Of a DNA stretch of 64,000 nt, positions 706 to 48,498 are shown one piece after another. Where the stretch lies: assembly GCA_965231035.1 (NCBI GenBank), contig OZ246409.1, positions 338,075 to 402,074 of the forward strand. The letters are read 5' to 3'. The DNA comes from an uncultured Muribaculaceae bacterium. GTDB lineage: Bacteria > Pseudomonadota > Alphaproteobacteria > Rs-D84. Every line of letters starts with the position of its first letter. Positions within the stretch are counted from its first letter, which is position 1. Position numbers and translations under genes: made by a program. The notes beneath the pieces were generated by a model that saw nothing but the letters and a program-made list of their open reading frames with translations, was not told where the DNA came from and ran no database searches.

Positions 706-766
706 TACATATTCATAATAAAAAACGGGATTCCCTGTTTTTTATTTATTTAATATTATTTTTAGA

Positions 767-868
767 AATTAAATTATGTGAGATGATTTGGAAGTGTTTC
801 ACAAACCCGACGTGTACAAGTGTTACACGAGGGAATGTGAACACAACAAGTGTCCGCAGAATTTAATT
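767..868. repeat. ~100-bp palindromic intergenic element, copy 1 (MITE/REP-like, terminal inverted repeats)
   Basis: About 80% identical to 5515..5617. Termini are aattaaattatgtg ... cgcagaatttaatt, which are inverted repeats. Internal stems include GTGTA/TACAC. Abuts the fabF stop. Confidence 0.6.
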
Positions 869-2118
869 TATATTTTTTTCAAAATCAAACTGGCGTTGGT
901 ACCACCAAAACCAAACGAGTTACTGATTGCAACTTCGACTTTATGTTTTTTAGCTTTATTCGGAACCAAATCAAAATCACCAACCATTTCTTCTGGATCT
1001 TTCAAATTGATTGTTGGTGGAACAATCCCATCGCGAATTGCCAAAACACAGAAAATTGCTTCAACCGCACCGGCCGCACCCAAAAGGTGCCCTGTCATTG
1101 ATTTTGTAGAAGACATACAAATATTACCAGCATCAGCAAACAATGTTTTTACTGCTGTTAATTCACCTATATCACCCAAACCAGTAGATGTTCCATGTGC
1201 GTTTACATAATCTACTTCTTCTGGTTTTATACCAGCATCTTTCAAAGCCGCTTTCATTGCACGCATTCCGCCTTCACCACCCTCGGCTGGAGCTGTAATA
1301 TGATGTGCGTCACCAGACATTCCATATCCTGCAACTTCGGCATAGATTTTTGCACCACGTGCCTTGGCATGTTCATATTCTTCCAAAACCAGAACACCTG
1401 CACCTTCGGCAATTATAAATCCATCGCGTGTTTTATCCCATGGACGAGATGCACCTTCGGGATCATCATTACGAGTTGATAAAGCTTTCATAGCTGAAAA
1501 TCCGGCCATACCTATTTTACCAACTGCACCTTCGGATCCACCACAAATCATAATGTCAGCATCACCGTGCTGAATCAATCTGGCACCTTCGCCAATTGAA
1601 TGAGCACCCGAAGCACAAGCAGTCACAATAGAAATATTTGGACCCTTAAAACCATATTTTATAGAAACCTGCCCGGATGTCATGTTAATAATAGACTTTG
1701 GAATAAAAAACGGACTGATGCTGCGCGGACCATTTGTATAAAGTTCTACACAACTTTCATAAATTGAATTCAAACCGCCAATTCCCCCACCTATTGAAAC
1801 CCCGACACGTTCTTTGTCACCAGTATAGTTATCCAATCCAGCATCTTTAACTGCTTCAACGGCGGCAACAACTCCATAAAGTATTGCTTTATCCATCTTA
1901 CGTTGTTCACGGGGATCAACAGAAATATCTGGGTTATATTGACCCGGTTCAGTACCATGAACTGGGAACCCTCCAATTTGTGAAGCCAGGTCGGACACAT
2001 CAAAAAGGTCTACCTTGCGAACACCGGATTTTCCAGAAATAATATTTTTCCACGCGTATTCCACACCAGTTCCAACCGGAGTAACAACGCCCATACCTGT
2101 AATAACAACTCGTCTCAT
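868..2118 (-). CDS. fabF: 3-oxoacyl-[acyl-carrier-protein] synthase II
   Basis: 416 aa. Thiolase-like KAS motifs (active-site Cys region TACASG, GHLLGAAG, NSFGFGG). Confidence 0.92.
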   Translation of the reverse strand: MRRVVITGMGVVTPVGTGVEYAWKNIISGKSGVRKVDLFDVSDLASQIGGFPVHGTEPGQYNPDISVDPREQRKMDKAILYGVVAAVEAVKDAGLDNYTGDKERVGVSIGGGIGGLNSIYESCVELYTNGPRSISPFFIPKSIINMTSGQVSIKYGFKGPNISIVTACASGAHSIGEGARLIQHGDADIMICGGSEGAVGKIGMAGFSAMKALSTRNDDPEGASRPWDKTRDGFIIAEGAGVLVLEEYEHAKARGAKIYAEVAGYGMSGDAHHITAPAEGGEGGMRAMKAALKDAGIKPEEVDYVNAHGTSTGLGDIGELTAVKTLFADAGNICMSSTKSMTGHLLGAAGAVEAIFCVLAIRDGIVPPTINLKDPEEMVGDFDLVPNKAKKHKVEVAISNSFGFGGTNASLILKKI

Positions 2119-2201
2119 TTTTATTTCCTATATTTTAAAGGGTTCATGACCCAAAATCTTGTTTTATCGTTAAGATAAACACTTGTCATTATAAACATTA
2201 G

Positions 2202-2242
2202 AAAAAAACCGTCAACAACAAAACATTGCTGACGGTTTTTTC
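2202..2242 (-). terminator. intrinsic terminator downstream of acpP (bidirectional appearance)
   Basis: Hairpin CCGTCAACAA...TTGCTGACGG flanked by an A-run and a T-run. Confidence 0.55.
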
Positions 2243-2280
2243 ATATTTTACCATTAAATCTTTACAAATATTATGAAAGA

Positions 2281-2538
2281 TTATTTTGCTGCTGGTTTTG
2301 CGGCTGGCTTTGCATGAGTTTCAATATACTTCACAGCATCACCAACTGTTTGCAATTTACCTGCATCTTCGTCTGGGATTGTGATATTGAATTCTTTTTC
2401 AACTTCCATAACGAATTCTACTACATCCAATGAATCCGCACCCAAATCGTTTACAAACGCGGCCTTTTCTGTAACCTTGGCTTCGTCAACGCCCAGTTTG
2501 TCTGCTACGATTTTTTTTACTCTTTCGAAAGTTGTCAT
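2281..2538 (-). CDS. acpP: acyl carrier protein
   Basis: 85 aa with DLGADSLD phosphopantetheine-attachment motif. Confidence 0.92.
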
Positions 2539-2670
2539 TTCTTATCCTTTGTTTTAGTTAAATTTGTGAGCTCACTTCAGAGCGTCGATAACCCAAACTA
2601 TCATTTTCAAGACCCAGTGTCAAGAAATTATAACAAACAATAACAAGTGATAAAAAATGCTGTCCGAAAA

Positions 2671-3669
2671 TTATTCTACTATATTATCAATCATACGGTT
2701 CATATTTTGTCGGAAATCTTCCCGATTAGAAGCCCAAATCAACTGCTTACTCATAAATTTATAAACATCATCCATTGTCAAATTTTGGATTTTTGCATTA
2801 CCAGCAACCCGTTTCCAAGCCATTCTGGGATCGGTTAAATGATATCCGCCGCGACCCGGGAAAACCCATTTCCCATTCTGAGGCAGGTCCTGTAAAACAA
2901 CAACCGCAGCATCTGACAAAGGGTGATTTTTCCATGTGTAATGGTTAAAATCTAAATCACGCCACTGCATAGAAAACACCTTGGACTTTGGTATAAACCC
3001 GTAAATAAGCATTAAAAAGGCAGATCTTAGCACCTGAGACTTTTCTTTATTTATTGCAATTAAAAGTCTATCAAATCCGGCCCTGGTCAGTGGACGAACA
3101 CGACGTTGTTCTTTTACTTTTTCTATATTTGAAACCGGATTTTCAGAAAGATACCCACTTTCTATTGCAAAGTTGAATATGCTGTGCACCAGTTCTTGCA
3201 TACGGTTTCTGACAACATTACCATCAATTTTATCCAACAATTCTTTGACTGTATCAGTATTTATTTCTTGGATATTTGATTCAAATATTGGTCCCAAGTG
3301 TCTGACCATTGAACGAACCAATTTTGCCAAAGATGTTTCGGTCCGATGAACTTTCTTAGTTAAATAAATATCTGCTACTCTTCTGAAGCTGACTTTTTTA
3401 TGGCGTAGTTTTGGTTTTACACTGGCAGCTCTTAAAACTTCGGGAACCATAATTCTAGCATCAGCAATTTCAACATCTGGGTATTTTCCGATGATAATTC
3501 TGCGGTCATGACCATTTACACGCTTTCTGACAAAAAAGCTTTTTACCCCGCGATTTGTTATGTACATGCGAAGTCTGGGCTCGGCAGAATCCTGAACCAC
3601 GTCAAATCCATTACTGGGGATGGGCAAATTGTCCAAAATATAAGGATTAAACAGAAACTGATGCGCCAT
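2671..3669 (-). CDS. phage-integrase-family protein (P4-type N-terminal arm-binding/DUF4102-like domain); catalytic region appears degenerate or truncated
   Basis: N-terminal region (LRMYITNRGVKSFFVRKR...IIIGKYPDVEIADAR) fits P4-like integrases. The C-terminal core lacks the usual R...HxxR...Y residues and ends early at 332 aa. Confidence 0.5.
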   Translation of the reverse strand: MAHQFLFNPYILDNLPIPSNGFDVVQDSAEPRLRMYITNRGVKSFFVRKRVNGHDRRIIIGKYPDVEIADARIMVPEVLRAASVKPKLRHKKVSFRRVADIYLTKKVHRTETSLAKLVRSMVRHLGPIFESNIQEINTDTVKELLDKIDGNVVRNRMQELVHSIFNFAIESGYLSENPVSNIEKVKEQRRVRPLTRAGFDRLLIAINKEKSQVLRSAFLMLIYGFIPKSKVFSMQWRDLDFNHYTWKNHPLSDAAVVVLQDLPQNGKWVFPGRGGYHLTDPRMAWKRVAGNAKIQNLTMDDVYKFMSKQLIWASNREDFRQNMNRMIDNIVE

Positions 3670-3690
3670 TTACATCTCCTTACTATATAC

Positions 3691-5478
3691 CTAAACTTTC
3701 AAAGCATTTATAAATGCGGTTTGTGGGATTTCGACATTACCGAATGTCCGCAAACGCTTTTTACCCTCTTTCTGCTTTTCTAACAATTTTCTTTTACGCG
3801 TAATATCACCACCATAACATTTGGCTGTAACATCTTTTCTGAACGCAGCGATTGTTTCACGAGCAATAATTTTTCCACCAATTGCCGCCTGGATTGGAAT
3901 CTTGAATTGATGTCTTGGAATCAAATCTTTTAATTTTTCAACAATTTGGCGACCACGTTTTTCCGAAAAAGAACGATGACATAAGAATGATAGAGGTTCG
4001 ACATTCTCTTCATTAACAAGAATAGATACCTTGACCAAATCAGATTCCTGGTACCCCTGCAAAACGTAATCAAAGCTGGCATAGCCACTGGATAAAGATT
4101 TCACACGATCATAAAAATCAAAAACTATTTCCGCCAATGGCAACTGGTAAACCAAAACCACACGGTTTCCAACATAAGAAATATTTTCCTGAACCCCACG
4201 ACGTTCAGAACACAGTGCCATAATTCCACCCATATATTTATCCGGCATCATTATTGTTGCACGAACCCAAGGTTCTTCAATTGATTCAATTAATGTTAAA
4301 TCTGGAATATCGGCTGGATTTTCCAAATCCAGAACTTCACCATTACGCAGGTGCAGCTTATAAAGCACGCTGGGAATTGTATTAATCAGATTCAAATCAA
4401 ATTCACGAGATAATCTTTCGTTTATGATTTCCATATGCAGCAGACCCAAAAAGCCGCAACGCAAACCAAACCCCAGCGCACTGGATTTTTCAACTGTGAA
4501 CACAAACGAAGCATCATTCAATGCCAATTTTTCGGCGCCATCACGCAGATTCGGGTAATCATCTGCCTCTACCGGAAAGAAGCTGGAAAACACAACCGGG
4601 ATGCTGGGTTTGAACCCGGCCAACCTTTCAACTGTTGCACGCGCATCTGTAATTGTATCACCGACCTTGCAGTCATGAATTGTCTTCATACCGGTTATGA
4701 TAAATCCAACTTCACCTGTGGCCAGTTCATCCACATTAACCATCTTGGGTGTAAAGTATCCGATTTTATCAACAATATATTCTGCGCCTGTTGCTATAAA
4801 TTTAATCTTTTGACCGCGTTTCAAACTTCCATCAACAACACGAACCAAAACCACAACCCCCAGATACGAATCGTACCAAGAATCAACCAACAACGCCCGC
4901 GTTGGTGAATCGGCATTTCCCTTTGGGGCTGGTAATTTTTTTACAATTTCTTCTAATAATTCAGGAACGCCCTGACCTGTTTTTCCAGAAACAGACAAAG
5001 CATCCTTTGCATCCAATCCAATAACATCGGCCATTTGATCCTTGGCGGCCTGAACATCACTGGAAGGTAAATCAATTTTATTTATAACCGGCAACATTTC
5101 CAAATTGTTATCCAAAGCCAGATAAGCATTTGCCAATGTTTGTGCCTGGACGCCTTGGGTTGCATCAACCAAAATCAAAGCACCTTCGCATGCGGCCAAA
5201 CTGCGTGAAACCTCGTAAGTAAAATCCACATGACCAGGGGTATCCATCAAGTTTAACTGATAAACTTCACCATTTTTCGCAGTATAATTCAAACGAACAG
5301 TCTGAGCCTTGATTGTAATTCCTCGTTCGCGTTCGATATCCATACTGTCCAGAACCTGGGCCTTCATTTCACGGGATTCCAATCCCCCTGTGAATTCAAT
5401 CAATCTGTCCGACAGTGTCGATTTACCATGATCAATGTGAGCGACTATTGCAAAATTTCTGATATTTGATTGTTTCAT
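3691..5478 (-). CDS. lepA: elongation factor 4 (LepA)
   Basis: 595 aa. GTPase motifs [18 protein letters not shown], plus LepA C-terminal domain. Confidence 0.93.
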
Positions 5479-5514
5479 AAGTGTTTTTAACCCAGTTTAA
5501 ATTTATAAATTATA

Positions 5515-5617
5515 AATTGAATTATGTGAGACGATTGGAGGCGTTTCAGCAGACCCGACGTGTACAAATGCTACACGAGGGTCTGTGAACGCAATCAAGC
5601 GGCCACAGAATTTAATT
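5515..5617. repeat. ~100-bp palindromic intergenic element, copy 2
   Basis: Aligns along its full length with 767..868, with compensatory substitutions in stem regions. Lies upstream of the lepA start. Confidence 0.6.
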
Positions 5618-5685
5618 TATGCGGCAATGATACACCAGTATTTCCACCTTTTCAACCTGATTCTTTATGAATTTTTGAATATTTA

Positions 5686-5713
5686 TTGACAAAAACTAAA
5701 TTAGTAATATAAT
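5686..5713 (+). promoter_or_regulatory. sigma70-like promoter TTGACA-16bp-TATAAT upstream of the 5744 gene cluster
   Basis: Consensus -35 TTGACA (5686-5691) and consensus -10 TATAAT (5708-5713) with a 16-bp spacer. Confidence 0.5.
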
Positions 5714-8399: not shown

Positions 8400-8909
8400 T
8401 TATTCAACCCAAATGGTTGCATAAGTTGTTGCTGTTTCAGAGCCTATTGGAATTTTCACATTAGATTTTGTAACATTCAATGTATCTGTTCCGACAGATA
8501 CATCAGAAATAACGTAACCAGTTCCAGACGTTGTAACACTGGCCAAACCAGATTCACCCGCAGGACCTTGAATTCCCTGGGGACCTTGGGGACCAATTTC
8601 GCCTTGGGGACCCTGTGCACCAGTTTCACCTTGGGGACCTTGGATACCTTGAATTCCCTGGGAACCTTGGGGACCAGTTTCACCCTGAGGACCCTGTGCA
8701 CCAGTATCTCCGGTATCACCTTTTGGACCCTGAGGACCAGTTTCACCCTGAGGACCTTGAGGTCCAGGAATCAGAGTTACTCCTTCTACAACCCTATCAA
8801 CATAGGTTTTACTTGCAATATTACCCGAAGCATAGCCAACAGTGGTTACTATAATTATAGCAACAAGAGAAACCGAAAAAATGCAATTTTTTTTCGTCAT
8901 ATCAACCAT
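8400..8909 (-). CDS. collagen-like (G-X-Y) repeat protein with N-terminal membrane anchor
   Basis: [28 protein letters not shown]... runs. N-terminal SKTYVD motif shared with the neighbouring paralogs. Confidence 0.7.
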
Positions 8910-8999
8910 ACTGAGGATAAATTTAAAACACTCTTACACGAAATCATAATATTTTTATTTGTGTGAAAAAAGAGTTTTTTTCACACAAAACAAAAAATA

Positions 9000-9857
9000 T
9001 TATCTTTCTACAACTTCCCAAGTATATGCTGTTCCATCAAAAGTCAGAACACACTTGCTGGTTGGATTGGAACATGCACCCGGTGCAGCTGTCGCCAATG
9101 TACCCAGACTTGCTGTATCAGCTTTTAATCCCAATGCTGTATTAATAGCTGTTGATGTCATAGCATCAGTGATACCATATCCAGACAATGTTGTTGCTTT
9201 ATCAGCTTTTGTTCCCAACGATGTATCAACTTCTGTTTTTGTATAAGTTGTTGCCTGATCAGCTTTTGCTGCTAAGGCTGTATTAACATCAGCTGTATTT
9301 GCTTTTGCTGCTAATGCTGTGTTTACATCGGCTGTATTCGCCTTGGTTGCCAAAGAAGTGTCAACTTCTGTCTTGGTATATGTTGTTGCCTTATCAGCCT
9401 TGGCATCTAATGCAGTATTAACAGTTGCGGTTTGTGCATAACCAGTCAAGTCAGCAGATTGCAATGCTGTATCAGCCTTGCCCAAAGAAGTTTGAACATC
9501 TGTTGCCAACTTTGGTTTCGTTACATTACCATCTACGATATCAGCAGTTCCAACAGTACTTTTTGTTGCCAATGCACCCAAACTTGCTGTATCAGCCTTT
9601 GCACCCAATGCTGTATCAACTTCAGTCTTGGTATATGTTGTGGCTTGATTTGCTTTAGCTGCTAAAGATGTATCAACTTCACTTTTTGTATAAGTTGTTG
9701 CCTGATCAGCTTTTGCTGCTATTGCAGTATTAATTGTTGTTGTTTGCGATGTATTTTGAGCATCAACATAGTTCTTACTGGCGATTTCAGCATTCGCTGC
9801 GCTTGCAAAACCTGCTGCAACTAAGATAGCAAACAGACTAGTGGTTATTTTTTTCAT
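9000..9857 (-). CDS. secreted repeat protein (TKAD/TTYTKTEVDT heptad-like repeats), paralog family
   Basis: Signal peptide. SKNYVDAQN motif. Repeated ...AAKADQATTYTKTEVDTSL... units. Conserved C-terminus. Confidence 0.7.
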   Translation of the reverse strand: MKKITTSLFAILVAAGFASAANAEIASKNYVDAQNTSQTTTINTAIAAKADQATTYTKSEVDTSLAAKANQATTYTKTEVDTALGAKADTASLGALATKSTVGTADIVDGNVTKPKLATDVQTSLGKADTALQSADLTGYAQTATVNTALDAKADKATTYTKTEVDTSLATKANTADVNTALAAKANTADVNTALAAKADQATTYTKTEVDTSLGTKADKATTLSGYGITDAMTSTAINTALGLKADTASLGTLATAAPGACSNPTSKCVLTFDGTAYTWEVVER

Positions 9858-9895
9858 ATTTTTATCTCCTTAATTATATCTTGTATGTTTAAACT

Positions 9896-10798
9896 TTATT
9901 GAACTGCAACATCTTCCCAATAAACCGTTCCTGTTGTTTTATTTATGCTTAACACGCATTGTGCTTGTGCGCCTAAACAGTTTGCAGATGGTTTTGGAAC
10001 AGAATATGTTTCAACAGCATTTACAGTTGTATACTTGGTTGTGCTGCCAGTATCTGTTGCGATGTTGTTTGATTTATTAGCAACATCTTCTTTTCCAGAC
10101 AGGTCTGTATTAATACCTGTTACTACACCACCAACATAGCTTTCAACTGCATGTACAGTCGTATACTTACTTGTGCTGCCTGTATCTGTTGTCATGTTAT
10201 CTGACTTATTTGCAACATCTTCCTTAGTTGCCAACGCTGTGTTAACATCTGTTGTGTTTGCTTTTGTTGCTAATCCAGTATCAACATATGTTGTATCTGC
10301 TTTGGTTGCCAATGCTGTGGTTACATCTGTTGTGTTTGCTTTTGTTGCCAATTGACCATCAACATATGTTGTGTCAGCTTTTGTTGCCAAACCTGTGTTA
10401 ACGTCTGCTGTTTTTGCATAATCTGTCAAATCAGCTGATTGCAATGCTGTATCTGCTTTGCCCAAAGTTGTTTGAACATCCAATGACAATTTTGGTTTAG
10501 TTACACTTGCATCATCAATATCAGTTGTTGTAACTGTACTTTTTGTTGCCAATGCACCCAAACTTGCTGTATCAGCCTTTGCACCCAATGCTGTATCAAC
10601 TTCAGTCTTGGTATAAGTATCCGTTTTATCAGCTTTTAAATTCAATGCCGATGTTGTATTTGTAGAAAGCGTTGCATTTTGAGCATCAACGTATCCTTTA
10701 CTGGTCAACTGAGTATCTCCAGGAGCTGCCTGAGCTGTACCAGCGCCAATCAGAATTACTGACATGACACCAAAAAAGACTATTTTTTTGTTTTTCAT
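9896..10798 (-). CDS. secreted repeat protein, paralog of 9000..9857
   Basis: Signal peptide, SKGYVDAQN, ATKADTTYVDTGLATKANTTDV repeats. An ~85-bp DNA tract is identical to the 9000..9857 gene. Confidence 0.7.
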   Translation of the reverse strand: MKNKKIVFFGVMSVILIGAGTAQAAPGDTQLTSKGYVDAQNATLSTNTTSALNLKADKTDTYTKTEVDTALGAKADTASLGALATKSTVTTTDIDDASVTKPKLSLDVQTTLGKADTALQSADLTDYAKTADVNTGLATKADTTYVDGQLATKANTTDVTTALATKADTTYVDTGLATKANTTDVNTALATKEDVANKSDNMTTDTGSTSKYTTVHAVESYVGGVVTGINTDLSGKEDVANKSNNIATDTGSTTKYTTVNAVETYSVPKPSANCLGAQAQCVLSINKTTGTVYWEDVAVQ

Positions 10799-10949
10799 TT
10801 TTTTCTCCGTTTTTGTTTTTTATCCCTTTTTTCTTTTTTAAGAAAACAGGTATATTTTCTTGTGATATTCAAAAATTTTTCAACTTATGCTTATCACTAC
10901 TCCCTTATTTGATTCAGTTGACTAAACAACCAAACCTTATCTACACTTT

Positions 10950-12398
10950 TTAATAAGCTACTTTAAACCAATCTGTTTGTCCGTTATTTACAACCATAAC
11001 ATAGTCAGAACCATCCGCAGGTGCGCCTGTGGTACTTGGAACATCCCCTGGTTGCAAAGCTGTATCCGCCTTGCCCAAAGAAGATTGAACATCTGTTGCC
11101 AACTTTGGTTTTGTAACATTGGCATCATCGATATCATTTGTTGCAACAGTATTCTTCGCAGCCAAAGCACCCAAGCTGGCTGTATCTGCTTTTGTCGACA
11201 AAGAAGTATTTACTTCTGTTTTTGTTGCATAGTTGGACATATCGGCCGATTGCAATGCTGTATCTGCTTTATCCAGAGAAGATTGGACATCCGTCGATAA
11301 TTTTGGTTTAGTAACATTCGCGTCATCAATATCTGTTGTTGCTACTGTATTCTTTGCAGCCAAAGCACCTAAACTCGCTGTGTCTGCCTTGGTTGATAAA
11401 TCTGTTTTTGTAGCATAATTAACTAAATCCGCTGGTTGAACTGCTGTATCTGCTTTGGCCCCTTGGACAGATGTTGCATAATTAGCAGCAGCAGCATTTA
11501 TCGCAGCAATAATTGCTGAATTCATTTCCAGTGTTGTTGAATATCCTGACAAATCAGCACCAGATCCAGGTTCACCCTGTGGACCTTGGGCACCAGTATC
11601 ACCTTTGTCACCCTTTTCGCCTTGAGGACCCTGTAATCCTTGTTCACCCTGTGGGCCTTGTAATCCCTGCTCTCCTTGGAGACCTTGTAAACCTTGTTCA
11701 CCTTGAAGTCCCTGGGCACCATCAGCACCTTTTAAATCTTGCAGGGATACCAAGTTAGTCCATGTACTGGATGCATCGTCATACTTCCATTGAATATGCG
11801 TTCCGTCTGATTGTAATAATATTTTTTCGCCGTTTACATTAACTGCGGATATAACACCATTTGCAATTTCAATCCCCGCACCAGCTGTTAAAATATCTTG
11901 TTTTGAATCTAATAATGTATCAGTTTCTGTTTTTGAATACTGATTATCATTAGCATCTTTTATATTATCTACTCTGGTATCTAAAACATCTATTTGATTT
12001 TGTAAATCTGTGTTATTACCTGTGCTGCCATTTGATGTGCTATAGCTGGGATTTTGAGATCTGATAGAGCTGCCACCACCAACATTTTTTCCACCACTTA
12101 AATATTTTCCAACAGAAAGTCTTGAAGAATAATAGCCAGAAGAATTTCTGGCAACACTTGTATCATTGGAATCAGAAGAAGTACTTGTTGAAGAACTGTC
12201 TGTATCAGTATTTGAATTTACTCTGATAGACGCAGCACGCAAAGAACCCGTACGTGCAGCTGTTGCATCGGAAGCACTGTTATATGTAGTCGCACCACCA
12301 AAAGATCTTATGGACGGAGCAGCATGTACACCACTAAAAGTGGTTGTACAAAAAACGCAAACTATTGATAATAATGATATCTTTACGTTATGTCTCAT
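10950..12398 (-). CDS. secreted chimeric collagen-like plus TKAD-repeat protein, paralog family
   Basis: Signal peptide. GLQGEQGLQGPQGEKGDKGDTG collagen run plus KPKL(A/S)TDVQSSLGKADTALQ repeats. Confidence 0.7.
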   Translation of the reverse strand: MRHNVKISLLSIVCVFCTTTFSGVHAAPSIRSFGGATTYNSASDATAARTGSLRAASIRVNSNTDTDSSSTSTSSDSNDTSVARNSSGYYSSRLSVGKYLSGGKNVGGGSSIRSQNPSYSTSNGSTGNNTDLQNQIDVLDTRVDNIKDANDNQYSKTETDTLLDSKQDILTAGAGIEIANGVISAVNVNGEKILLQSDGTHIQWKYDDASSTWTNLVSLQDLKGADGAQGLQGEQGLQGLQGEQGLQGPQGEQGLQGPQGEKGDKGDTGAQGPQGEPGSGADLSGYSTTLEMNSAIIAAINAAAANYATSVQGAKADTAVQPADLVNYATKTDLSTKADTASLGALAAKNTVATTDIDDANVTKPKLSTDVQSSLDKADTALQSADMSNYATKTEVNTSLSTKADTASLGALAAKNTVATNDIDDANVTKPKLATDVQSSLGKADTALQPGDVPSTTGAPADGSDYVMVVNNGQTDWFKVAY

Positions 12399-12457
12399 TA
12401 ATTCTCTCTACCCTCAACAGTATACCACATTTTTGACCCTCATAAAAGTGCCTATTT

Positions 12458-19940: not shown

Positions 19941-19972
19941 ATGTTTAAAAAACCGTGCTTTGCACGGTTTTA
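19941..19972 (-). terminator. intrinsic terminator
   Basis: Hairpin CCGTGCTTTGCACGG with a T-run on the minus strand. Confidence 0.55.
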
Positions 19973-19978
19973 ATTACT

Positions 19979-20429: not shown

Positions 20430-21377
20430 ATGAAATTTTCAGATTTTGGGCTGGTGAACTCGAAAAATATGTTTGTGGACGCGATGAAACGCAAGTTTGC
20501 AGTACCTGCTTTTAATTTTTACAATATGGAAACTCTGAAATCCATTATTGCCGCCGCCGATGAATGCCACAGTCCTGTTATTTTGGGCGTGTCCGAATCC
20601 GCCCTTAAATATATGGATGATGATTTGTTGATGGGTATGATTTACGGTTTAAAGTTAAAATCAAAAAACATCGTTTTGCACCTGGATCACGGACACAGTT
20701 TTGAATCTTGCAAACATGCAATTGATATCGGATTTTCCAGCGTGATGTTCGACGGCAGTGAATTGCCCTTTGCCGAAAATGTTAAACAAACCAAACGCGT
20801 TGTAAATTATGCAAAAAAGTTTAATGTATCAGTAGAGGCTGAATTGGGAACATTATCCGGAATCGAAGACGAAAACACAAAATCAGAAAATCACAGTTAT
20901 ACCGATCCCAGGGACGTTATAAAATTTGTTTCTGAAACAGGATGTGATTCTTTGGCAATTGCAATTGGAACCAGTCATGGTGCATACAAAAGAAAAAGTC
21001 CGAATGAAAAACTGCGTTTTGATATTCTGAAAGAAGTATCTAAGAAACTTTCAAAGTTTCCTTTGGTACTACATGGTGCTTCGACAATCCCGCAAAATTT
21101 TGTAAAAAACATAAATAAAAATGGTGGAAAATTATGTCATCCACTTGGTATCCCAGAGGCCCAGATAAAAAAAGCCGTCAAAATGAATATCTGCAAAGTT
21201 AATGTGGACAGTGACGCCCGTTTGGCTTTTACCGCCGCAGTTCGTGAAAGTTTAAATAAAAATCCAGAAAACTTTGACCCCAGAAAATATCTGACCACCG
21301 CCATGGAAAATATGAAAAAGATTTATATTCATGAAATTAAAAATGTTATGAATTCTGAAAATAAATCAAAAAAATAA
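20430..21377 (+). CDS. fba: class II fructose-bisphosphate aldolase
   Basis: HLDHGHS...MFDGS motifs; 315 aa. Confidence 0.85.
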   Translation: MKFSDFGLVNSKNMFVDAMKRKFAVPAFNFYNMETLKSIIAAADECHSPVILGVSESALKYMDDDLLMGMIYGLKLKSKNIVLHLDHGHSFESCKHAIDIGFSSVMFDGSELPFAENVKQTKRVVNYAKKFNVSVEAELGTLSGIEDENTKSENHSYTDPRDVIKFVSETGCDSLAIAIGTSHGAYKRKSPNEKLRFDILKEVSKKLSKFPLVLHGASTIPQNFVKNINKNGGKLCHPLGIPEAQIKKAVKMNICKVNVDSDARLAFTAAVRESLNKNPENFDPRKYLTTAMENMKKIYIHEIKNVMNSENKSKK

Positions 21378-21403
21378 CCGCCAAATGGCGGTTTAAAATT
21401 TTT
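21378..21403 (+). terminator. intrinsic terminator after fba
   Basis: Hairpin CCGCCAAATGGCGG followed by TTTAAAATTTTT. Confidence 0.55.
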
Positions 21404-21501
21404 GAAATAAATTAGAATGATGCAGGTGCGAAGCATTTGATATAGGGAGTGTAAAATGTTACATGACCGAAATCAAATGCCAGCAGATGCGTTATTATAA
21501 T

Positions 21502-22071
21502 TTATTTTGACCTTTCGACATATTCCAAGGTTTCCGTATTAACCACAATTTTTTCACCCTGTTCAACGAAAACCGGAACTTGGACGCGAACACCGTTATC
21601 CAATATTGCAGGTTTACCACCGGAACCAGAAACTGTCTGACCACGCAAAGCTGGTTCGGTTTCAACAATAGTTGCAATAACTGTTTTTGGCAATGTGATT
21701 GAAATCGGCTGACCTTCTACAAAGTTTGTCTTAACCATCATTTCAGGCTTCAAGAACTTTACCTGTTCGCCCAAAGAATCTTCTGGCATTGTGAATTGTT
21801 CGTAATCTGACATATTCATAAAATAAGAATTTGTTCCGTCCGAATACAAATATTGACAGTCCATATCTTCAACCAACAACTTTTCAACTTTATCTTCGGC
21901 ACGCCAACGATCGCCACCCTTATTCCCAGTGTCAATATCACGCAAGTCGGCTTGAACAAACGCGCCGCCTTTACCTGGTTTTACCTTGGTAATAGATGTA
22001 ACTGTGTATCTTTTGCCGTTGTGAGAAATTGCCCAACCAACACGCATATCGTTTGCTGTATGTGATGCCAT
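21502..22071 (-). CDS. efp: elongation factor P
   Basis: 189 aa with KPGKGGAF loop and three EF-P domains. Confidence 0.9.
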   Translation of the reverse strand: MASHTANDMRVGWAISHNGKRYTVTSITKVKPGKGGAFVQADLRDIDTGNKGGDRWRAEDKVEKLLVEDMDCQYLYSDGTNSYFMNMSDYEQFTMPEDSLGEQVKFLKPEMMVKTNFVEGQPISITLPKTVIATIVETEPALRGQTVSGSGGKPAILDNGVRVQVPVFVEQGEKIVVNTETLEYVERSK

Positions 22072-22744: not shown

Positions 22745-22780
22745 TCTATTAAAAAACCGCCAATTTGGCGGTTTTATTTT
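22745..22780 (-). terminator. intrinsic terminator after dnaN
   Basis: Hairpin CCGCCAATTTGGCGG with flanking A-run and T-run. Confidence 0.55.
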
Positions 22781-23897
22781 ACATTTTCAAAGGCATCAAG
22801 ATGAATAACGAATCCGTCTTTTTGTCTGTTGATTTAATAATTGTTGGTGACATAGAATCCTGCATTTCCATTTGGAATTTATCACCTTCGATTTGACCAG
22901 CAATATCCAACAAGAATTTAACACTGAATAAAATTGTGAATGAATTATCACCATTGTATTCGATATCCAGTTCTTGGGTTGCAGTTCCGGCCTCGGCGCT
23001 GGATGCATTGATAACCAGTTTGTTCATTGAAAAACTTAACTGAACCGATTTTGTTTTATCAACGCTGGCAACAGAAACCAAGTCAACTGCGGAAATAAAT
23101 TGTTTTCTGTCAAATATTGCAATTTTGTCATTGCCCTTTGGAATAACAACACGATAGTTTGGATACTGTGCGTCAACCAATTTGCTTGTCAAGATTGCAG
23201 TACCTACTGTAAATCTGGCCTTGGTATCTGACAATTCAACATGAACGTCGTCAACGGTTGCATCTTCTAATAATTTTGACAATTCACCAATAACGCGGCG
23301 TGGCAAAATAACAGATGGCATTTCCAAACTTCCCGATGGAGCTGACATATGACACAAAGCCATACGCTGTGCGTCTGTTGCAACAGCAGTCAGCATTTTT
23401 GCTTTGCCTTCTTCAGCAATGTGGAAATAGATACCACCCAAATGATAACGAACATCATCAACAGGGATTGCAAACTTTGTTGTATTAATCAAATTTGCCA
23501 AATCACCAGTTGTCATTTGGAATTTTGTTGTCAGGTTGCTGCCTGCCATTGCTGGGAAATTTTCAGCTGGCAAAGTTGGCAAACGGAAAACTGCACGACC
23601 ACTGGAAACAACCAATTGGTCACCAGATTGTTTAAAATTGATTTCTGCATCATCAGGCAACTTACGAACGATATCGTACAGCATCTGAACTGGAACTGTG
23701 ATTTTACCAGGCAAAGTGATATCGGCTGTGACGTGTTCAACCAATTCCAAATCTACGTTGGTTGCGGACAGAATCATATCATCTGCAACTTCGATTTTTA
23801 CGTTCATCAAAATAGGCAAAGTTGCACGCTTTTCAACAATAGATTGCATATGTCCCAAAGCACGTATCAAAACCTGGCGAAATACTGAAAATTCCAT
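22779..23897 (-). CDS. dnaN: DNA polymerase III beta sliding clamp
   Basis: 372 aa with the three-domain clamp pattern. Confidence 0.88.
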   Translation of the reverse strand: MEFSVFRQVLIRALGHMQSIVEKRATLPILMNVKIEVADDMILSATNVDLELVEHVTADITLPGKITVPVQMLYDIVRKLPDDAEINFKQSGDQLVVSSGRAVFRLPTLPAENFPAMAGSNLTTKFQMTTGDLANLINTTKFAIPVDDVRYHLGGIYFHIAEEGKAKMLTAVATDAQRMALCHMSAPSGSLEMPSVILPRRVIGELSKLLEDATVDDVHVELSDTKARFTVGTAILTSKLVDAQYPNYRVVIPKGNDKIAIFDRKQFISAVDLVSVASVDKTKSVQLSFSMNKLVINASSAEAGTATQELDIEYNGDNSFTILFSVKFLLDIAGQIEGDKFQMEMQDSMSPTIIKSTDKKTDSLFILMPLKM

Positions 23898-29935: not shown

Positions 29936-30535
29936 ATGAAAAAATTTGTAAACTTTTTATCTGCATTCAGAATATTTGCGGCATTCGCACTTATTCCAAC
30001 AATCATGTTCCAGATGTTCTGGCTGACATTCGTAATGTATGTTTTGGCAGCGGTTTCTGATTTCTTTGACGGTTATTTGGCAAAGAAATACAAAGTCACC
30101 AGCAAAATCGGTGGTGTCTTAGATCATATTGGGGACAAGTTGTTGGTTGTAAACACGATGATACTTTTGACTATTATGATGCCAGTATGGTTTGTTCTGA
30201 TTCCTGTAATTTTGATGGTTGCACGTGAATTGTATATCAGCGGTCTGCGTGAATTTTTGGGAACACAGAAAATTGAAATGCCAGTACCAGCAGGCAGATT
30301 TTCAATGGGCAAAATCAAGACAACATTGCAAATGGTTGCGATTGGTGCATTTCTTTTGATGTTTGCTTTGGGTGCCAGCCTGACCCCAAATATGACCAGC
30401 AGAATTTTGATGTATGCAATATACTTTTTGCCATTTATTGGTGTTGGATTGTTGTGGTTATCTTTGTTGGCAAGCTTATGGTCAGCAACAGAATACACAA
30501 AAACATTTATTGAAAAGTTCAAAAAGATAAAATAA
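29936..30535 (+). CDS. pgsA: CDP-diacylglycerol--glycerol-3-phosphate 3-phosphatidyltransferase
   Basis: DFFDGYLAK...DHIGDKLL CDP-alcohol phosphatidyltransferase motif. Confidence 0.8.
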   Translation: MKKFVNFLSAFRIFAAFALIPTIMFQMFWLTFVMYVLAAVSDFFDGYLAKKYKVTSKIGGVLDHIGDKLLVVNTMILLTIMMPVWFVLIPVILMVARELYISGLREFLGTQKIEMPVPAGRFSMGKIKTTLQMVAIGAFLLMFALGASLTPNMTSRILMYAIYFLPFIGVGLLWLSLLASLWSATEYTKTFIEKFKKIK

Positions 30536-30562
30536 AAAATCCCGCGATTGCGGGATTTTTTA
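30531..30562 (+). terminator. bidirectional intrinsic terminator between pgsA and dnaJ
   Basis: Hairpin TCCCGCGATTGCGGGA flanked by an A-run and a T-run. Confidence 0.6.
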
Positions 30563-32492: not shown

Positions 32493-34472
32493 ATGGTTGA
32501 AAAAATTAATCACTCCTATGACGCATCAGATATACAAGTACTCGAAGGTCTGGAACCAGTTCGCCTTCGTCCTGGTATGTATATCGGTGGTACTGATGAA
32601 AAAGCATGGCACCACCTGCCTATTGAAATTCTGGACAACTCGATTGACGAGGCTGTCGCTGGTTTTGCTAAAAAAATCACGGTAAATCTGATAGATAGTA
32701 AAACTATTGAGATTACAGACGATGGTCGTGGTATTCCTGTCGATGAACATCCAAAGTATCCTGGCAAATCGGCTTTGGAAATTATTTTTACATCACTTCA
32801 TTCCGGTGGAAAGTTTAACAACAATGTTTATAAAACCAGTGGTGGGTTGCACGGTGTGGGCAGTTCCGTTGTAAATGCACTGTCTTCGGAAATGGTTGTT
32901 TTGGTTTCACGTGATGGATTTGTTTGGAAACAAACTTTTTCCCGCGGTAAAACCACCAGCCCAATTACCAAGAGTGAAGCAACAAAAAATCATGGAACAT
33001 CTATTCGATTCACATTAGATGATCAAATATTCGGCAGTGGTGCAACATTTAAACCTTTGAAAATTTATCGTATGGCACGTGCCAAGGCTTTCTTGTCCAG
33101 TGGTGTTCGTGTTGAATGGAAATGTAATCCAAGTCTTTTGACCGAAGATATGAATATCAACCCAGAAACAACATTCTATTATCCAAATGGTGTGGCTGAT
33201 TTCTTAGAAGAAAAAACAAATTCTAAACCACACATTTTGCCAAAGATTTTTAGTGGCAGTGTTGATTTTCCAGATGATTCTGGTCATGTTGAATGGGCAT
33301 TAACATTTTTAACAGATGAAAACGGTGCCGCATCTGATGATGGATTCTTTGCCAGCTATTGCAATACAATTTCAACAATTGACGGTGGAACACATGAATC
33401 TGGATTCAAATCTGCAATAACACGCGGTTTGAAAAACTATGGCGAAAAAATAAACAATAAAGCAGCGGCAAATATTATCGGTGAAGATGTTTTCGATTCG
33501 GCTGCCGCGATTGTTTCAGTATTTTATAAATCTCCACAATTTTTGGGACAAACGAAAGAAAAACTTTCAAATCCGGAAATAGCCAGATTTACAGAAAATG
33601 CGTTGCGTGATCCCTGGGAAATTTTCTTGGCATCAGATCCAAAAACTGCAAATGCAATTTTAGATTTTGTAATTAATTTAGCAAATGCACGTATAAAAAC
33701 GAAACAGGTCAAAGATATCGCACGTAAAACACCAACTAAGCGTGCACGTATGCCACATAAACTGGCAGATTGTTCTAAACACGGTATTGCTGGAACTGAA
33801 TTGTTCTTGGTCGAAGGTGAATCAGCCGGTGGAACCGCCAAACAAGCACGCGATAGAAACACCCAGGCAATTATGCCGTTACGTGGTAAAGTTTTAAATG
33901 TTCTGTCTAATTCTGACGAACGTTTCAAAGATAACAAAGAATTGAATGAATTAATTGATATTATCGGTGCTGGAACTGCGCGGGATTGGGATGAATCAAA
34001 ACTGCGTTATGAAAAAATTGTCATAATGACCGATGCGGATGTTGATGGCAGTCATATTGCATCTTTGCTGATGGGATTTTTCTATCAATTTATGCCTCAA
34101 TTGATTCATGATGGACATTTATATTTATCTTGTCCTCCTCTTTATAAGATAACTCATGGGGCAGATTCAATTTATGTTGACACCGATGAAGAATTGGAAG
34201 AGTTGAAGAATACTAAATATAAAAATAAAAAAATTGAAATATCTCGATTCAAAGGTCTTGGTGAAATGATGCCAAATCAGTTAAAAGAAACGACAATGTC
34301 ACCAAAAACTCGCCGATTGATAAGGGTTGTATTACCATCAAAAAACGAAGAAGGATTCGAAGATACTGAAAAAACAAAAGTTTTGGTTTCCGAATTGTTG
34401 GGTAAAAAACCAGAATTCCGTTTCAAGTTCATAACAGAACACGCAAAGTTTGTAAAAGATTTGTTTGTTTAA
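32493..34472 (+). CDS. parE: type IIA topoisomerase ATPase subunit, ParE-like (topoisomerase IV subunit B) by length
   Basis: 659 aa with GHKL ATPase, TOPRIM (EGDSAGG) and C-terminal domain. Shorter than a typical GyrB. Confidence 0.8.
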   Translation: MVEKINHSYDASDIQVLEGLEPVRLRPGMYIGGTDEKAWHHLPIEILDNSIDEAVAGFAKKITVNLIDSKTIEITDDGRGIPVDEHPKYPGKSALEIIFTSLHSGGKFNNNVYKTSGGLHGVGSSVVNALSSEMVVLVSRDGFVWKQTFSRGKTTSPITKSEATKNHGTSIRFTLDDQIFGSGATFKPLKIYRMARAKAFLSSGVRVEWKCNPSLLTEDMNINPETTFYYPNGVADFLEEKTNSKPHILPKIFSGSVDFPDDSGHVEWALTFLTDENGAASDDGFFASYCNTISTIDGGTHESGFKSAITRGLKNYGEKINNKAAANIIGEDVFDSAAAIVSVFYKSPQFLGQTKEKLSNPEIARFTENALRDPWEIFLASDPKTANAILDFVINLANARIKTKQVKDIARKTPTKRARMPHKLADCSKHGIAGTELFLVEGESAGGTAKQARDRNTQAIMPLRGKVLNVLSNSDERFKDNKELNELIDIIGAGTARDWDESKLRYEKIVIMTDADVDGSHIASLLMGFFYQFMPQLIHDGHLYLSCPPLYKITHGADSIYVDTDEELEELKNTKYKNKKIEISRFKGLGEMMPNQLKETTMSPKTRRLIRVVLPSKNEEGFEDTEKTKVLVSELLGKKPEFRFKFITEHAKFVKDLFV

Positions 34473-34498
34473 AAAACCGCCACTTGGCGGTTTTTTTA
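34470..34498 (+). terminator. intrinsic terminator after parE
   Basis: Hairpin CCGCCACTTGGCGG followed by TTTTTTT. Confidence 0.6.
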
Positions 34499-35770
34499 TT
34501 TAATTCCAACTGTGAATTCATCATCCCAGCCTGCGACAACTTGGCCACCGACTGTACAACTGATATCTTCAAATCCATTTTCAGTTTGATTCTTTTTGAT
34601 AATGCTGCTGGTTATTAACCCACCTGCAGTTCCCAACACTACACCAGCAACAGAATCTGATACCAAGCGTGCCTTGTTAAAATTGCCTTCTTTGTCAGTC
34701 CAGACACTTTTTTTACTAAAATTCGACATAACACCGTTTATATCATTCGCAAAAGACTTAATTTTACTTTCTGAATTAGTAACACCCGTAGTTTTTTCAT
34801 CCTCGTACTTTTTAATCAGAAGTTTAAGTTTTAATATATCGTTATCAAGATTGAATTGAGCAATATTGTTAGAATTTTCTTTACATTCATCCAATATTTT
34901 TTCAATCAATGAAGATATATCTTTATCATTAGAATATTGTATAGCCTCACTTTGTAGCCAATCTATTGTCTCATTTCTGCATTGTGCCGACTTTTTAACA
35001 CACTGAGAACCATTCCAAAATAATTCACCAGATTTACCACAATCACAAGTATTTTTAGTGATATTCCAAGAACCCCCTGCATTTATACACTTCCTTTTGA
35101 TAGCTTCTAACTTAGAGTTATCTTCCTGTTGTTTTTTATTTTTCGCTGCGTCATTTAAACTTTTATCATCACACCAAATTAAGGTAGTTATATTATTACT
35201 TATGTTAATTTGTTTTTGAACAGCACCTTTTGGACATTTGTTACTACATTGGTCAGAAGATGTTAAATAAAAGTTATCATGACTACCATAACGACTTTCC
35301 GGACAACCATTATAGTAAGTAAAATCCATATTAACATCATTTGTTGTTTTTGGTTCACCATCTTGAGAAACAGCAAAAGGTAACAAGGATTTTGGAGTAA
35401 TATTATAATCTGCTGATGGTGATAAGAAATTACTTGTGTTAAATTGTAATCCAAAGGTATCGTTCGTTACCCAACTTCCATTTTTACATACAACTACAAT
35501 ATTTGCAGCAACAGGAAAAGAAGAACCATTTTTGATATTATAAGCCACCGCACCCATCTTAGTTGCAACATCCTGCAAATTTTGCGTATTATATCTTGCA
35601 CAGAAAACTACCACTTTTTGACCAAAATTATCAACTACATAACCATCATTCTGATTTTGATCTTTTACAATTGTTGGTTTGGAAGGTAATTGTATAATAA
35701 AATTTGCATTTGCAACTTCTATAATACCGAGCAACGCTAAAAAAACTGAAAAAAATGCTAATTTTCTCAT
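34496..35770 (-). CDS. large secreted Cys-rich, Asn-rich hypothetical protein
   Basis: Signal peptide (MRKLAFFSVFLALLGIIEVANA), GGAGA RBS, multiple Cys pairs. Confidence 0.5.
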   Translation of the reverse strand: MRKLAFFSVFLALLGIIEVANANFIIQLPSKPTIVKDQNQNDGYVVDNFGQKVVVFCARYNTQNLQDVATKMGAVAYNIKNGSSFPVAANIVVVCKNGSWVTNDTFGLQFNTSNFLSPSADYNITPKSLLPFAVSQDGEPKTTNDVNMDFTYYNGCPESRYGSHDNFYLTSSDQCSNKCPKGAVQKQINISNNITTLIWCDDKSLNDAAKNKKQQEDNSKLEAIKRKCINAGGSWNITKNTCDCGKSGELFWNGSQCVKKSAQCRNETIDWLQSEAIQYSNDKDISSLIEKILDECKENSNNIAQFNLDNDILKLKLLIKKYEDEKTTGVTNSESKIKSFANDINGVMSNFSKKSVWTDKEGNFNKARLVSDSVAGVVLGTAGGLITSSIIKKNQTENGFEDISCTVGGQVVAGWDDEFTVGIK

Positions 35771-47808: not shown

Positions 47809-47835
47809 AAAATCCGCAAAAATGCGGATTTTTTA
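47806..47835 (+). terminator. bidirectional intrinsic terminator
   Basis: Hairpin TCCGCAAAAATGCGGA followed by TTTTTT. Confidence 0.6.
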
Positions 47836-48498
47836 TTACTTTGGATTATATCCAAAAATATCACGTTCACCCCAATCCATATCAATCGAGCAACGGGTTG
47901 GTAAAAATTCAAAACATTTTTTTGCCAAATCAAATCTGTTTTTATCACGCAATTCGTCGGTCAGATAATCTTTCAGCATATGCAAATATAAAACATCTGT
48001 GGCGGCATATTTTTGCTGGTTCTTGGTCAATTTTTTGGTCCAGTCTGAACAAGTCTCGGACCCGTCCATTTCAATTTTAAATAACTCACGCAATACATTG
48101 TGAAGTGCATGACTTTTTTTCGGACGTGCCAGCAAGACACCAATTTTTGTGCAAAAAACAGGCATTGTCCACACGCCTAATCTTTTATAAATCATCAGTA
48201 TATCCATTCTGGCATAATGAAATATTTTTGTAATTTTTGGATTAGATAAAACCTTTTTCAAATTTGGGTATTCTTGGTTATCACGAATTTGTACCAGATA
48301 AAAATCATCACTGTCGCGGGCGCGTAACTGCACCAAACATAAATGATCACCCTTGACATCCAATCCAGTCAATTCTGTATCAACGGCCAAATCAGTGGTA
48401 TTAGACAAATCCACAACTTGCGCATCCGACAAATCATTTTGTAAATAAATTATGTTCATTTTATTTTCTTTTTTATTTATTCCTTCTGGCCAGTGCAA
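47836..48498 (-). CDS. 3'-5' exonuclease, RNase D-like DEDDy domain protein (start uncertain)
   Basis: Exo I (DTELTGL) and Exo III (YAATD) motifs. Confidence 0.6.
   Translation of the reverse strand: MHWPEGINKKENKMNIIYLQNDLSDAQVVDLSNTTDLAVDTELTGLDVKGDHLCLVQLRARDSDDFYLVQIRDNQEYPNLKKVLSNPKITKIFHYARMDILMIYKRLGVWTMPVFCTKIGVLLARPKKSHALHNVLRELFKIEMDGSETCSDWTKKLTKNQQKYAATDVLYLHMLKDYLTDELRDKNRFDLAKKCFEFLPTRCSIDMDWGERDIFGYNPK

Follow-up and report, generated by a model that had tools for sequence, protein, structure and literature searches.

A palindromic element with a conserved hairpin tip beside housekeeping genes of an uncultured alphaproteobacterium and of other bacteria

What kind of element is a palindrome of about 100 bp that recurs beside housekeeping genes of one genome? 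The question is raised by a 64,000-nt stretch of DNA from an uncultured bacterium of the alphaproteobacterial lineage Rs-D84 (assembly GCA_965231035.1, contig OZ246409.1, forward-strand positions 338,075 to 402,074), referred to here as the window. A preliminary description of this DNA had pointed out two similar sequences, one past the end of fabF and one upstream of lepA, and had proposed a MITE (a miniature transposable element with inverted repeats), a REP- or RPE-like repeat or a small structured RNA. Repeats of this small palindromic kind are as a rule remnants of local insertion sequences (IS) that are specific to one lineage. In the present analysis, we found three copies in the window and relatives in other genomes. 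Our favoured reading, held with moderate confidence, is that the window elements belong to a family of non-autonomous MITE-like palindromes of 100-150 bp, with a tip bound by an unknown factor and an orientation filtered by the terminating ribosome. The core of this reading, a miniature non-coding palindromic mobile element that sits at TA-containing stop codons or just past promoters and is carried in the untranslated regions (UTRs) of its host genes, is well supported.

Hairpins in the window and relatives in other genomes

Two look-alike elements with inverted termini were found where the preliminary description had placed them, both on the plus strand, at 762..872 (copy 1; hairpin 767-868) and 5510..5621 (copy 2; hairpin 5515-5617). 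They aligned end to end with 86% column identity over approximately 110 columns, a higher value than the ~80% given before, and shared the termini aatt[a/g]aattatgtgag ... cagaatttaatt. Written as an inverted pair, the window termini read AATT(A/G)AATTATGTG ... CACAGAATTTAATT, and the entire element is an imperfect palindrome. The left limit of similarity was TTA(G/T)AAATT and the right limit TTTAT, and the sequences beyond were unrelated. Thus, copies 1 and 2 are not a segmental duplication, an alternative that had been raised with the preliminary description. The 28-nt centre of the element occurred twice in the window, compared to no occurrence expected from 100 shuffles.

A covariance model was built from copies 1 and 2 and six relatives from other genomes, and every position of the window was scored with it. 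Copies 1 and 2 reached 104.5 and 105.6 bits, respectively, and a diverged third copy, which the preliminary description had missed, was detected at 21401..21512 on the plus strand (31.8 bits, E = 3e-5; subfamily of loci L010 and L101). The window elements are 103-112 nt in length, those in other genomes 100-150 nt, and they have no coding capacity of their own. An element-encoded peptide was considered on account of a 27-codon open reading frame (ORF) in copy 1, but was rejected since insertions and deletions in the arms shift the frame between copies. Throughout, the strand reading CCCGACG serves as the reference strand that defines the 5' and 3' ends of the element. In all three window copies it is the plus strand, and all three host genes are located on the minus strand.

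On the plus strand, each copy was predicted to form a single long hairpin, with folding energies of -35.9 kcal/mol for copy 1 (z = -6.0), -42.7 kcal/mol for copy 2 (z = -7.0) and -44.8 kcal/mol for copy 3 (z = -9.5); for copies 1 and 2, none of 200 shuffles each folded as well. The covariation that had been claimed between paired segments held up: GUGUU/AACAC in copy 1 corresponds to GCGUU/AACGC in copy 2, an exchange of U-A for C-G. The remaining differences in the stems of these copies were one-sided changes involving G-U pairs or changes from a mismatch to a pair, and not a single pair was broken. In the eight-sequence alignment including the relatives from other genomes, 24 of 38 predicted pairs displayed double compensatory changes. 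The hairpin is under selection and is kept by compensatory changes.

The apical module of the hairpin reads CCC-GA-CGTGTA-CAAGTGT-TACACG-A-GGG in copy 1 (806..833, plus strand) and CCC-GA-CGTGTA-CAAATGC-TACACG-A-GGG in copy 2 (5554..5581, plus strand). Copy 3 carries a variant, GG-GA-GTGTAA-AATG-TTACAT-GA-CC (21445..21468, plus strand), in which G-C replaces C-G in the outer pairs and a tandem GA/GA forms the internal loop. One genome per species was searched for the exact pattern CCCGACGTGTA-N7-TACACGAGGG, which comprises 21 fixed bases. The tip CCC-GA-CGUGUA-N7-UACACG-A-GGG was present without change in at least 119 loci of other genomes, compared to well under one chance match expected in approximately 1.2e12 positions. 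Among the matches listed, about 95 were from Solirubrobacterales (70% G+C, several per contig), five from Coriobacteriales-type contigs, about 17 from metagenome-assembled genomes of termite-gut Alphaproteobacteria or Rickettsiales, and two from Burkholderiales/Casimicrobium, one of them a genome of 32% G+C. In every lineage the motif forms the tip of a 100-150-nt hairpin, the arms of which are paired throughout yet have no sequence similarity between lineages. A tip that is identical across unrelated phyla is not explained by ordinary selfish repeats. One further exact match to the 21 bases, in a contig of 77% G+C (L095 1263-1290), has no paired arms, probably lies within a coding region and appears to be unrelated.

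Secondary copies, recovered by model and BLAST searches of the same loci, had varied tips in which the pairs were kept: CUC/GAG with CGCGUA/UACGCG (L057), AGC/GCU (L052), GC./.GU with GCUGUA/UACAGC (L032) and GG/CC with GUGUAG/CUACAU (L011). The internal loop was GA/A, GAA/GA or GA/GA in all of these variants. The exact-match search thus overstates the invariance of the tip, and it is the architecture that is constant. At L057, two copies are arranged in tandem 20 nt apart (2655-2763 and 2785-2893), with unlike arms and tips that differ in a compensatory manner (CCC..GGG with CGUGUA and CUC..GAG with CGCGUA).

The family did not correspond to a described one in the collections searched. The window and ten of the loci gave no match to Rfam 15 at gathering thresholds other than tRNA and tmRNA genes, and permissive searches of three element regions (E up to 10) returned only chance matches to generic hairpin models. 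A scan of viral contigs for the apex gave no match, nor did a blastn search of a plasmid collection with two family members (L038 and L012). Metagenome contigs scanned with the pattern of the window family yielded only two loci. A pattern matching copy 1 exactly failed to recover the window's own JGI contig (Ga0116170_10000073), which the collection therefore lacks, so that missing matches there have little bearing on copy number in this organism. Literature searches on the motif string and on palindromic repeats associated with stop codons brought up no description of this family.

Position relative to genes, strands and relatives

The gene context given for the first two copies proved correct. 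Copy 1 is located at the end of fabF (868..2118, minus strand), whose TAA stop codon at 868-870 is the last TTA of the conserved element end. A bidirectional intrinsic terminator at 717..746 ends the fabF transcript, so that copy 1 lies between stop codon and terminator. Copy 3 has an equivalent position at efp, encoding elongation factor P (21502..22071, minus strand): the stop codon at 21502-21504 and the last codons are contained in the outer stem of the element, and a bidirectional terminator at 21376..21393 is shared with the convergent aldolase gene (20430..21377, plus strand), which places copy 3 between the efp stop and the terminator. Copy 2 is located upstream of lepA (3691..5478, minus strand) and begins a few bases after the predicted lepA promoter (5627..5655, minus strand), TTGAAA-17-TATCAT with an extended TG. 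It lies between this promoter and the start codon and thus constitutes the first part of the lepA 5' UTR. A scan of the window for intrinsic terminators did not call the elements themselves, and separate canonical terminators adjoin copies 1 and 3.

A similar placement was observed in other genomes. Of 32 copies outside Solirubrobacterales, 21 have the stop of an opposite-strand ORF (at least 80 codons) no more than 12 nt from their 3' end; a same-strand ORF stop is equally near the 5' end in about five of the 32, some of these ORFs being doubtful. In this group, stop codons are nearly always abutted by one and the same end of the element. The genes abutted are fabF, efp, tsf, rpoC, rho (in two genomes), smpB, ftsK and those for an acyl-CoA dehydrogenase and an acyl-CoA-binding protein (ACBP). 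At convergent gene pairs, it is in most cases the opposite-strand gene that is abutted (efp and not the aldolase gene, ACBP and not a LysE-family gene, smpB and not the patatin gene), which argues that orientation follows the abutted gene and does not depend on replication alone. Since the abutted stop is on the opposite strand, the host mRNA carries the reverse complement of the CCCGACG strand. Terminators were located just past the elements, and no upstream sequence was found to be conserved among family members or Coriobacteriales orthologues. The rho stop carries an element of different subfamilies at L122 (6000-6112) and L038 (2546-2654), which is either an old, diverged insertion or a reused site.

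Comparison with relatives demonstrated that the element is present or absent at orthologous sites and comes and goes. According to FabF homologues, the window organism belongs among uncultured Rickettsiales-like Alphaproteobacteria. In two relatives with 88-89% identical FabF (L124 and L126), gene order is kept and no element follows fabF. The gene ends in the same last codons and TAA (...AATATAA and ...AATTTAA), followed by unrelated sequence and a terminator. As these element-free relatives share the fabF TAA, copy 1 was inserted exactly at a pre-existing stop codon. The lepA promoter, TTGAAA-17-TGnTATCAT followed by GCCGCA, is conserved in four genomes (the window and the three relatives L124, L126 and L127). 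The element directly follows it in the window and in L127 (FabF 80% identical; 52.9 bits), whereas L124 and L126 lack it. In the L127 copy, CCC...GGG of the window is replaced by UCC...GGA, a further compensatory change.

Filled and empty sites also occur in Solirubrobacterales, where flank comparison over all loci identified orthologous filled sites (gap 178) as well as sites that are empty or hold only ends or internally deleted elements (gaps 8-39). The ends in this lineage are GTGGTC...GGCCAC, most of them flanked by TA on both sides (cTA|GTGGTC...GGCCAC|TAg). Of 70 copies, 43 form TAG (TA plus G, read inward) at the left junction and 38 at the right, and in 26 this TAG is the stop codon of an ORF with high G+C at third codon positions. 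A count of orientation based on these junctions gave 14:11 and thus no clear bias. An apparent bias of 43:13 was discarded as unreliable, given shadow ORFs in high-GC genomes and the lack of confirmation by the junction count. Near-identical copies in this lineage would fit a recent burst that has not yet been filtered by selection. The apex here reads GTAG...CTAC, of which GTAG is not kept in other lineages. In L007 (6950-7170), L110 (4340-4560) and about ten other Solirubrobacterales loci, an extra hairpin of approximately 70-80 nt follows UCCGAGGAC in the 3' arm and gives rise to a branched structure; it resembles part of the element's own 5' arm and was seen in two subfamilies.

In the Coriobacteriales-type contigs, all five element-bearing loci carry it at the same site: it abuts the smpB stop and is followed by a bidirectional terminator shared with a patatin-like gene (for example L025 2970-3290 and L018 1840-2130). 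In the two loci checked, L018 and L025, this site is approximately 1.2 kb from the tmRNA gene, and in three loci of this type part of the 5' arm is duplicated at a distance of approximately 100 nt.

The two strands of the element differ. The CCCGACG strand folded into the more stable structure in 116 of 120 copies. Minus-strand folds of the window copies reached -28.4 (copy 1), -36.1 (copy 2) and -29.0 kcal/mol (copy 3), so that the purine strand is more stable by 7-16 kcal/mol. Unpaired internal-loop bases on the CCCGACG strand were purines in 77% of cases (476 versus 142; overall purine fraction 0.556; p = 2e-28), and GA/GA, GA/A, A/G and G/A loops recurred in every lineage. By a measure that treats both strands alike, the window family had G-T and A-C mismatches at a ratio of 19:4 and a second family of Alphaproteobacteria at 33:9; the ratio was about 1:1 elsewhere and 204:264 in Solirubrobacterales, where the asymmetry is absent. 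The plus strand of the window has a negative GC skew and the majority of genes lie on the minus strand; mutational skew is therefore no explanation for the G/T-rich mismatches of the plus strand. The features of a folded functional nucleic acid are thus borne by the host gene's template strand and not by its mRNA.

Several other features of the window were recorded. An integrase-like ORF of 332 aa is encoded between lepA and acpP (2671..3669, minus strand). It has an arm-DNA-binding domain and a central domain of the phage-integrase type, a catalytic domain can scarcely be detected (E = 0.04), the catalytic Arg and His-x-x-Arg motifs are seemingly missing, and it is syntenic in the three relatives L124, L126 and L127. 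Judged by its sequence, it looks like a domesticated and probably inactive recombinase. We rejected it as a recombinase acting on the flanking copies because of the poorly detectable catalytic domain, its presence near no other copy and its synteny in element-free relatives. Large, internally repetitive minus-strand genes at approximately 8400-12400 encode Gly-X-Y collagen-like repeats (Pfam Collagen in the JGI annotation) with periodic repeats of 39-78 nt, a surface-protein content unusual for a Rickettsiales-like genome. Units composed of an A-tract, a GC hairpin and a T-tract (for example AAAAAACCGCC...GGCGGTTTTT) recur at 19945-19975, 22749-22790, 30531-30562, 34468-34509 and 47806-47837, and resemble ordinary bidirectional intrinsic terminators and not a repeat family.

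Mobility, its weak points and the alternatives

With respect to mobility, the elements have several hallmarks of a MITE: they are short (a MITE being under about 300 bp) and non-coding, have terminal inverted repeats, occur as dispersed copies (three in 64 kb; several per Solirubrobacterales contig) and display filled and empty sites. Insertion would occur at a TA dinucleotide, within TAA or TAG or, in Solirubrobacterales, a CTAG-like sequence, with duplication of the TA, and the stop codon may then be rebuilt by the element's first base (A or G). IS630/Tc1-type transposases, acting in trans, mediate TA insertion with TA duplication. A TA duplication within CTAG is the behaviour of IS630, for which CTAG-like sequences are the classic target. 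We infer an IS630-like mechanism from the flanks of the elements. In the window, copies 1 and 2 are flanked by TTA...TTA (762-764/868-870 and 5510-5512/5617-5619), a candidate target duplication of either TA or TTA. Located between stop codon and terminator, or at the start of a 5' UTR, the element would be co-transcribed with its host gene as a long UTR hairpin. Copies that place the stable purine-looped strand in the mRNA directly after a stop codon would be lost over time, possibly because a ribosome at termination would have to open the hairpin at its base. The apical module, consisting of a 3-bp clamp, a GA/A or GA/GA loop and the CGUGUA/UACACG stem, would be kept across phyla through a trans-acting factor, probably on a single strand.

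Several observations weigh against this reading. No autonomous element or transposase with matching ends was detected in the window or in the 119 loci of 8 kb that the search covered. The 8-kb loci likewise contained no long autonomous version with Solirubrobacterales ends and no protein that recurs beside the element across lineages. When the ends are set at AATT...AATT, copy 2 is flanked by TA...TA but copy 1 by GA...TA, and TA is missing from the junction of the empty lepA sites of L124 and L126; divergence of the empty sites is too great for the duplicated bases to be defined. Recognition of terminal repeats by a transposase accounts neither for arms that evolve by compensatory changes nor for an apex identical across phyla with completely different ends. 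Neither the cross-phylum tip nor a purine-strand asymmetry fixed relative to the abutted gene is explained by any MITE model. The better-folding, purine-looped GA strand is complementary to the host mRNA, which is not predicted by a simple role as an RNA hairpin in the UTR. Finally, the constant smpB site in five Coriobacteriales loci, including diverged ones, is more suggestive of an element maintained for a function than of a selfish repeat.

The last point leads to the alternative that survives best, although we regard it as unlikely on the whole, namely that the element is a domesticated cis-acting part of the mRNA. The hairpin would block an exonuclease or 5'-end-dependent decay or tune translation termination, the apex would bind a host RNA-binding protein, and mobility would be only the means of delivery. 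Such a role would be in line with a location that is always inside transcription units, either from stop to terminator or directly after a promoter, and with abutted genes that are highly expressed housekeeping genes. It would also account for the smpB copy at the same site in diverged contigs, with arms paired by compensatory changes, and for a lepA copy common to lineages with FabF only 80% identical. Orientation-dependent effects on mRNA have a precedent in ERIC. However, the mRNA of the window genes carries the weaker strand (-28 to -36 compared to -36 to -45 kcal/mol), with pyrimidine-pyrimidine and A-C mismatches; the conserved GA/A and GA/GA loops, like the G-U pairs, belong to the opposite strand. 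In addition, close relatives lack the element at the same genes, and the many near-identical Solirubrobacterales copies resemble a recent burst.

A further alternative is that the element is a single-stranded DNA (ssDNA) site for transposition or recombination, with the purine-looped strand folding and its apex, with extrahelical G and A, being recognised by an HUH or tyrosine enzyme in a manner comparable to integron attC bottom strands or IS200/IS605 ends. Movement would then take this route instead of relying on a cut-and-paste transposase bound to terminal repeats. The strong purine excess among unpaired bases, the purine loops in every lineage and the predominance of G-T over A-C in two alphaproteobacterial families are consistent with a folding DNA strand, which, as in attC, is the template strand of the abutted gene. 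The centre and not the ends is conserved, which would suit recognition of a folded hairpin, and the apex consists of 6-bp inverted arms around a 7-nt spacer. We consider this reading less probable than domestication. Solirubrobacterales have no G-T/A-C asymmetry, and the folding strand of the window copies is, by GC skew and gene orientation, the leading-strand template and not the lagging-strand template that IS200/IS605 use. Moreover, the attC signature RYYYAAC ... GTTRRRY, arrays and an adjacent integrase are all absent, and the integrase-like ORF between lepA and acpP is degenerate and syntenic in element-free relatives. The MITE-like reading, domestication in the UTR and the ssDNA site are not mutually exclusive; they differ mainly in the strand and molecule that is active.

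That the elements are genes for small RNAs (sRNAs), transcribed from the plus, purine-looped strand and antisense to the 3' ends of housekeeping genes, is very improbable. The far better folding of the plus strand and a loop composition typical of structured RNAs would agree with such genes. However, a promoter scan detected no plus-strand promoter-like site upstream of copies 2 and 3; such a site is present upstream of copy 1, but is cut off by the intervening terminator. Copy 2 is located upstream and not downstream of a strong plus-strand promoter at 5686-5713, no upstream sequence is conserved in the family or in Coriobacteriales orthologues, and Rfam holds no matching family. The lack of a conserved promoter on the better-folding strand and the location inside the transcription units of other genes thus argue against a dedicated sRNA gene. 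Chance resemblance or local segmental duplication, conceivable as long as only two copies and nothing else had been seen, can be regarded as refuted by the zero matches expected, the unrelated flanks, the third copy and the hundreds of relatives elsewhere.

Relation to known repeats and biological meaning

The MITE-like reading can be further placed by comparison with described repeats. The Correia elements (NEMIS) of Neisseria are similar in being 100-155 bp in length and non-coding, with long inverted repeats that form one hairpin in the transcript, a TA duplication (a candidate one in the present family) and gene-adjacent, co-transcribed insertion. Both have a functional site in the centre, which in Correia elements is a site for IHF (PMC2229807). 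There is no sequence similarity between the two, however; Correia elements are confined to one genus and are far less regularly placed with respect to stop codons, and the present centre is a GA-bulged stem-loop without an IHF consensus that is common to several phyla. The RUP of Streptococcus pneumoniae, mobilised by IS630-Spn1 at TA (PMC2229807), and other IS630-mobilised MITEs share TA insertion (a proposed one in the present family), a size of about 107 bp, multiple copies and the absence of coding capacity. In contrast to the present family, the terminal repeats of RUP match those of IS630-Spn1; no parent IS was found here, and RUP has neither a conserved internal module nor reported covariation. 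ERIC/IRU (RU-1) and YPAL (RU-2) of enterobacteria are imperfect palindromes of ~127-168 bp in transcribed intergenic regions. ERIC is co-transcribed with an orientation-dependent effect (PMC2229807), and for ERIC and YPAL the effects on neighbouring mRNA include an interplay with the terminating ribosome. They are a different sequence family within one bacterial family, without a cross-phylum core or a reported purine-strand asymmetry.

Other likenesses are confined to single traits. Integron attC sites are imperfect palindromes of 60-140 nt that start at the stop codon of the preceding ORF or overlap it, in which the best-folding strand is the bottom or template strand, unpaired bases mark the strand, and structure is kept with sequence left free. 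The present element is likewise found at the end of an ORF with the bottom strand folding. However, attC sites have conserved boxes (RYYYAAC and GTTRRRY) at the base and a variable tip, the opposite of the conserved tip and variable base found here, and the present copies are dispersed among housekeeping genes without cassette arrays or a nearby intI. Membership in attC was rejected since the boxes are absent in the window family; one alphaproteobacterial subfamily has GTTAGGY, which is at the wrong end and without a partner. REP and REPIN elements are also dispersed extragenic palindromes, often just after genes, and are proposed mRNA stabilisers; REPINs form long hairpins, and the Solirubrobacterales apex GTAG...CTAC recalls GTAG-tagged REPs. 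In contrast, a REP measures 20-40 nt and a REPIN combines two REPs around a variable middle, compared to a single hairpin of ~100 nt with a conserved middle. A REP/REPIN-RAYT assignment was not retained, as the element is not a 20-40-nt unit or doublet tagged with GTAG or CGTC and GTAG is restricted to the Solirubrobacterales apex. The RPE label is not supported, since in-frame insertion into a gene was seen for no copy: all three window copies are outside coding sequence save for the stop-codon overlap and, in copy 3, the last efp codons. Derivation from IS200/IS605 (PATE), for which subterminal hairpins at either end, a lack of terminal inverted repeats and of a duplication, and a fixed target of 4-5 nt on one side would be expected, was dismissed as well, the element being one end-to-end palindrome with inverted termini that shares only the orientation-specific abutment of TAA.

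Thus, the family does not have the defining features of attC, REP/REPIN, RPE or IS200/IS605 derivatives and matches no Rfam family. It works most like Correia, ERIC and RUP-type MITEs, with a logic of placement and strand choice that most resembles attC. The outcomes that would have refuted the preliminary description, namely a lack of further copies, unsupported covariation or a duplication carrying its flanks, were each contradicted by the analysis. Among the classes named there, a MITE-like element fits best, the RPE and REP/REPIN labels find no support, and a dedicated small RNA gene is unlikely.

Three features break the picture of lineage-specific debris: an identical tip combined with different ends and arms, upkeep by compensatory changes, and siting at the stop codons of core genes in one orientation. 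Together they point to an unknown conserved factor that pairs up with the tip, and to an interplay of the element with translation termination, mRNA decay or replication that depends on its orientation. We tentatively raise, as a possibility of no great probability, that the tip, with its 3-bp clamp, sheared-GA internal loop and invariant CGUGUA/UACACG stem on arms that may change freely while remaining paired, is the recognition module of a mobility or processing system not described so far. Such a system would act on a folded single strand and direct the hairpin specifically to stop codons of genes with high expression, in three phyla or more. As the folding strand complements the mRNA, the acting strand may be ssDNA or a cDNA copied from host mRNA. 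If true, this would represent a new class of structure-defined mobile element, with a logic like that of attC and the opposite architecture, and not another MITE. For their hosts, the elements provide stop codons or overlap with them and extend the UTRs of housekeeping genes by about 100 nt of structured sequence. They break the synteny-based annotation of terminators and sRNAs, and they are a ready marker for strain-level polymorphism in uncultured lineages.

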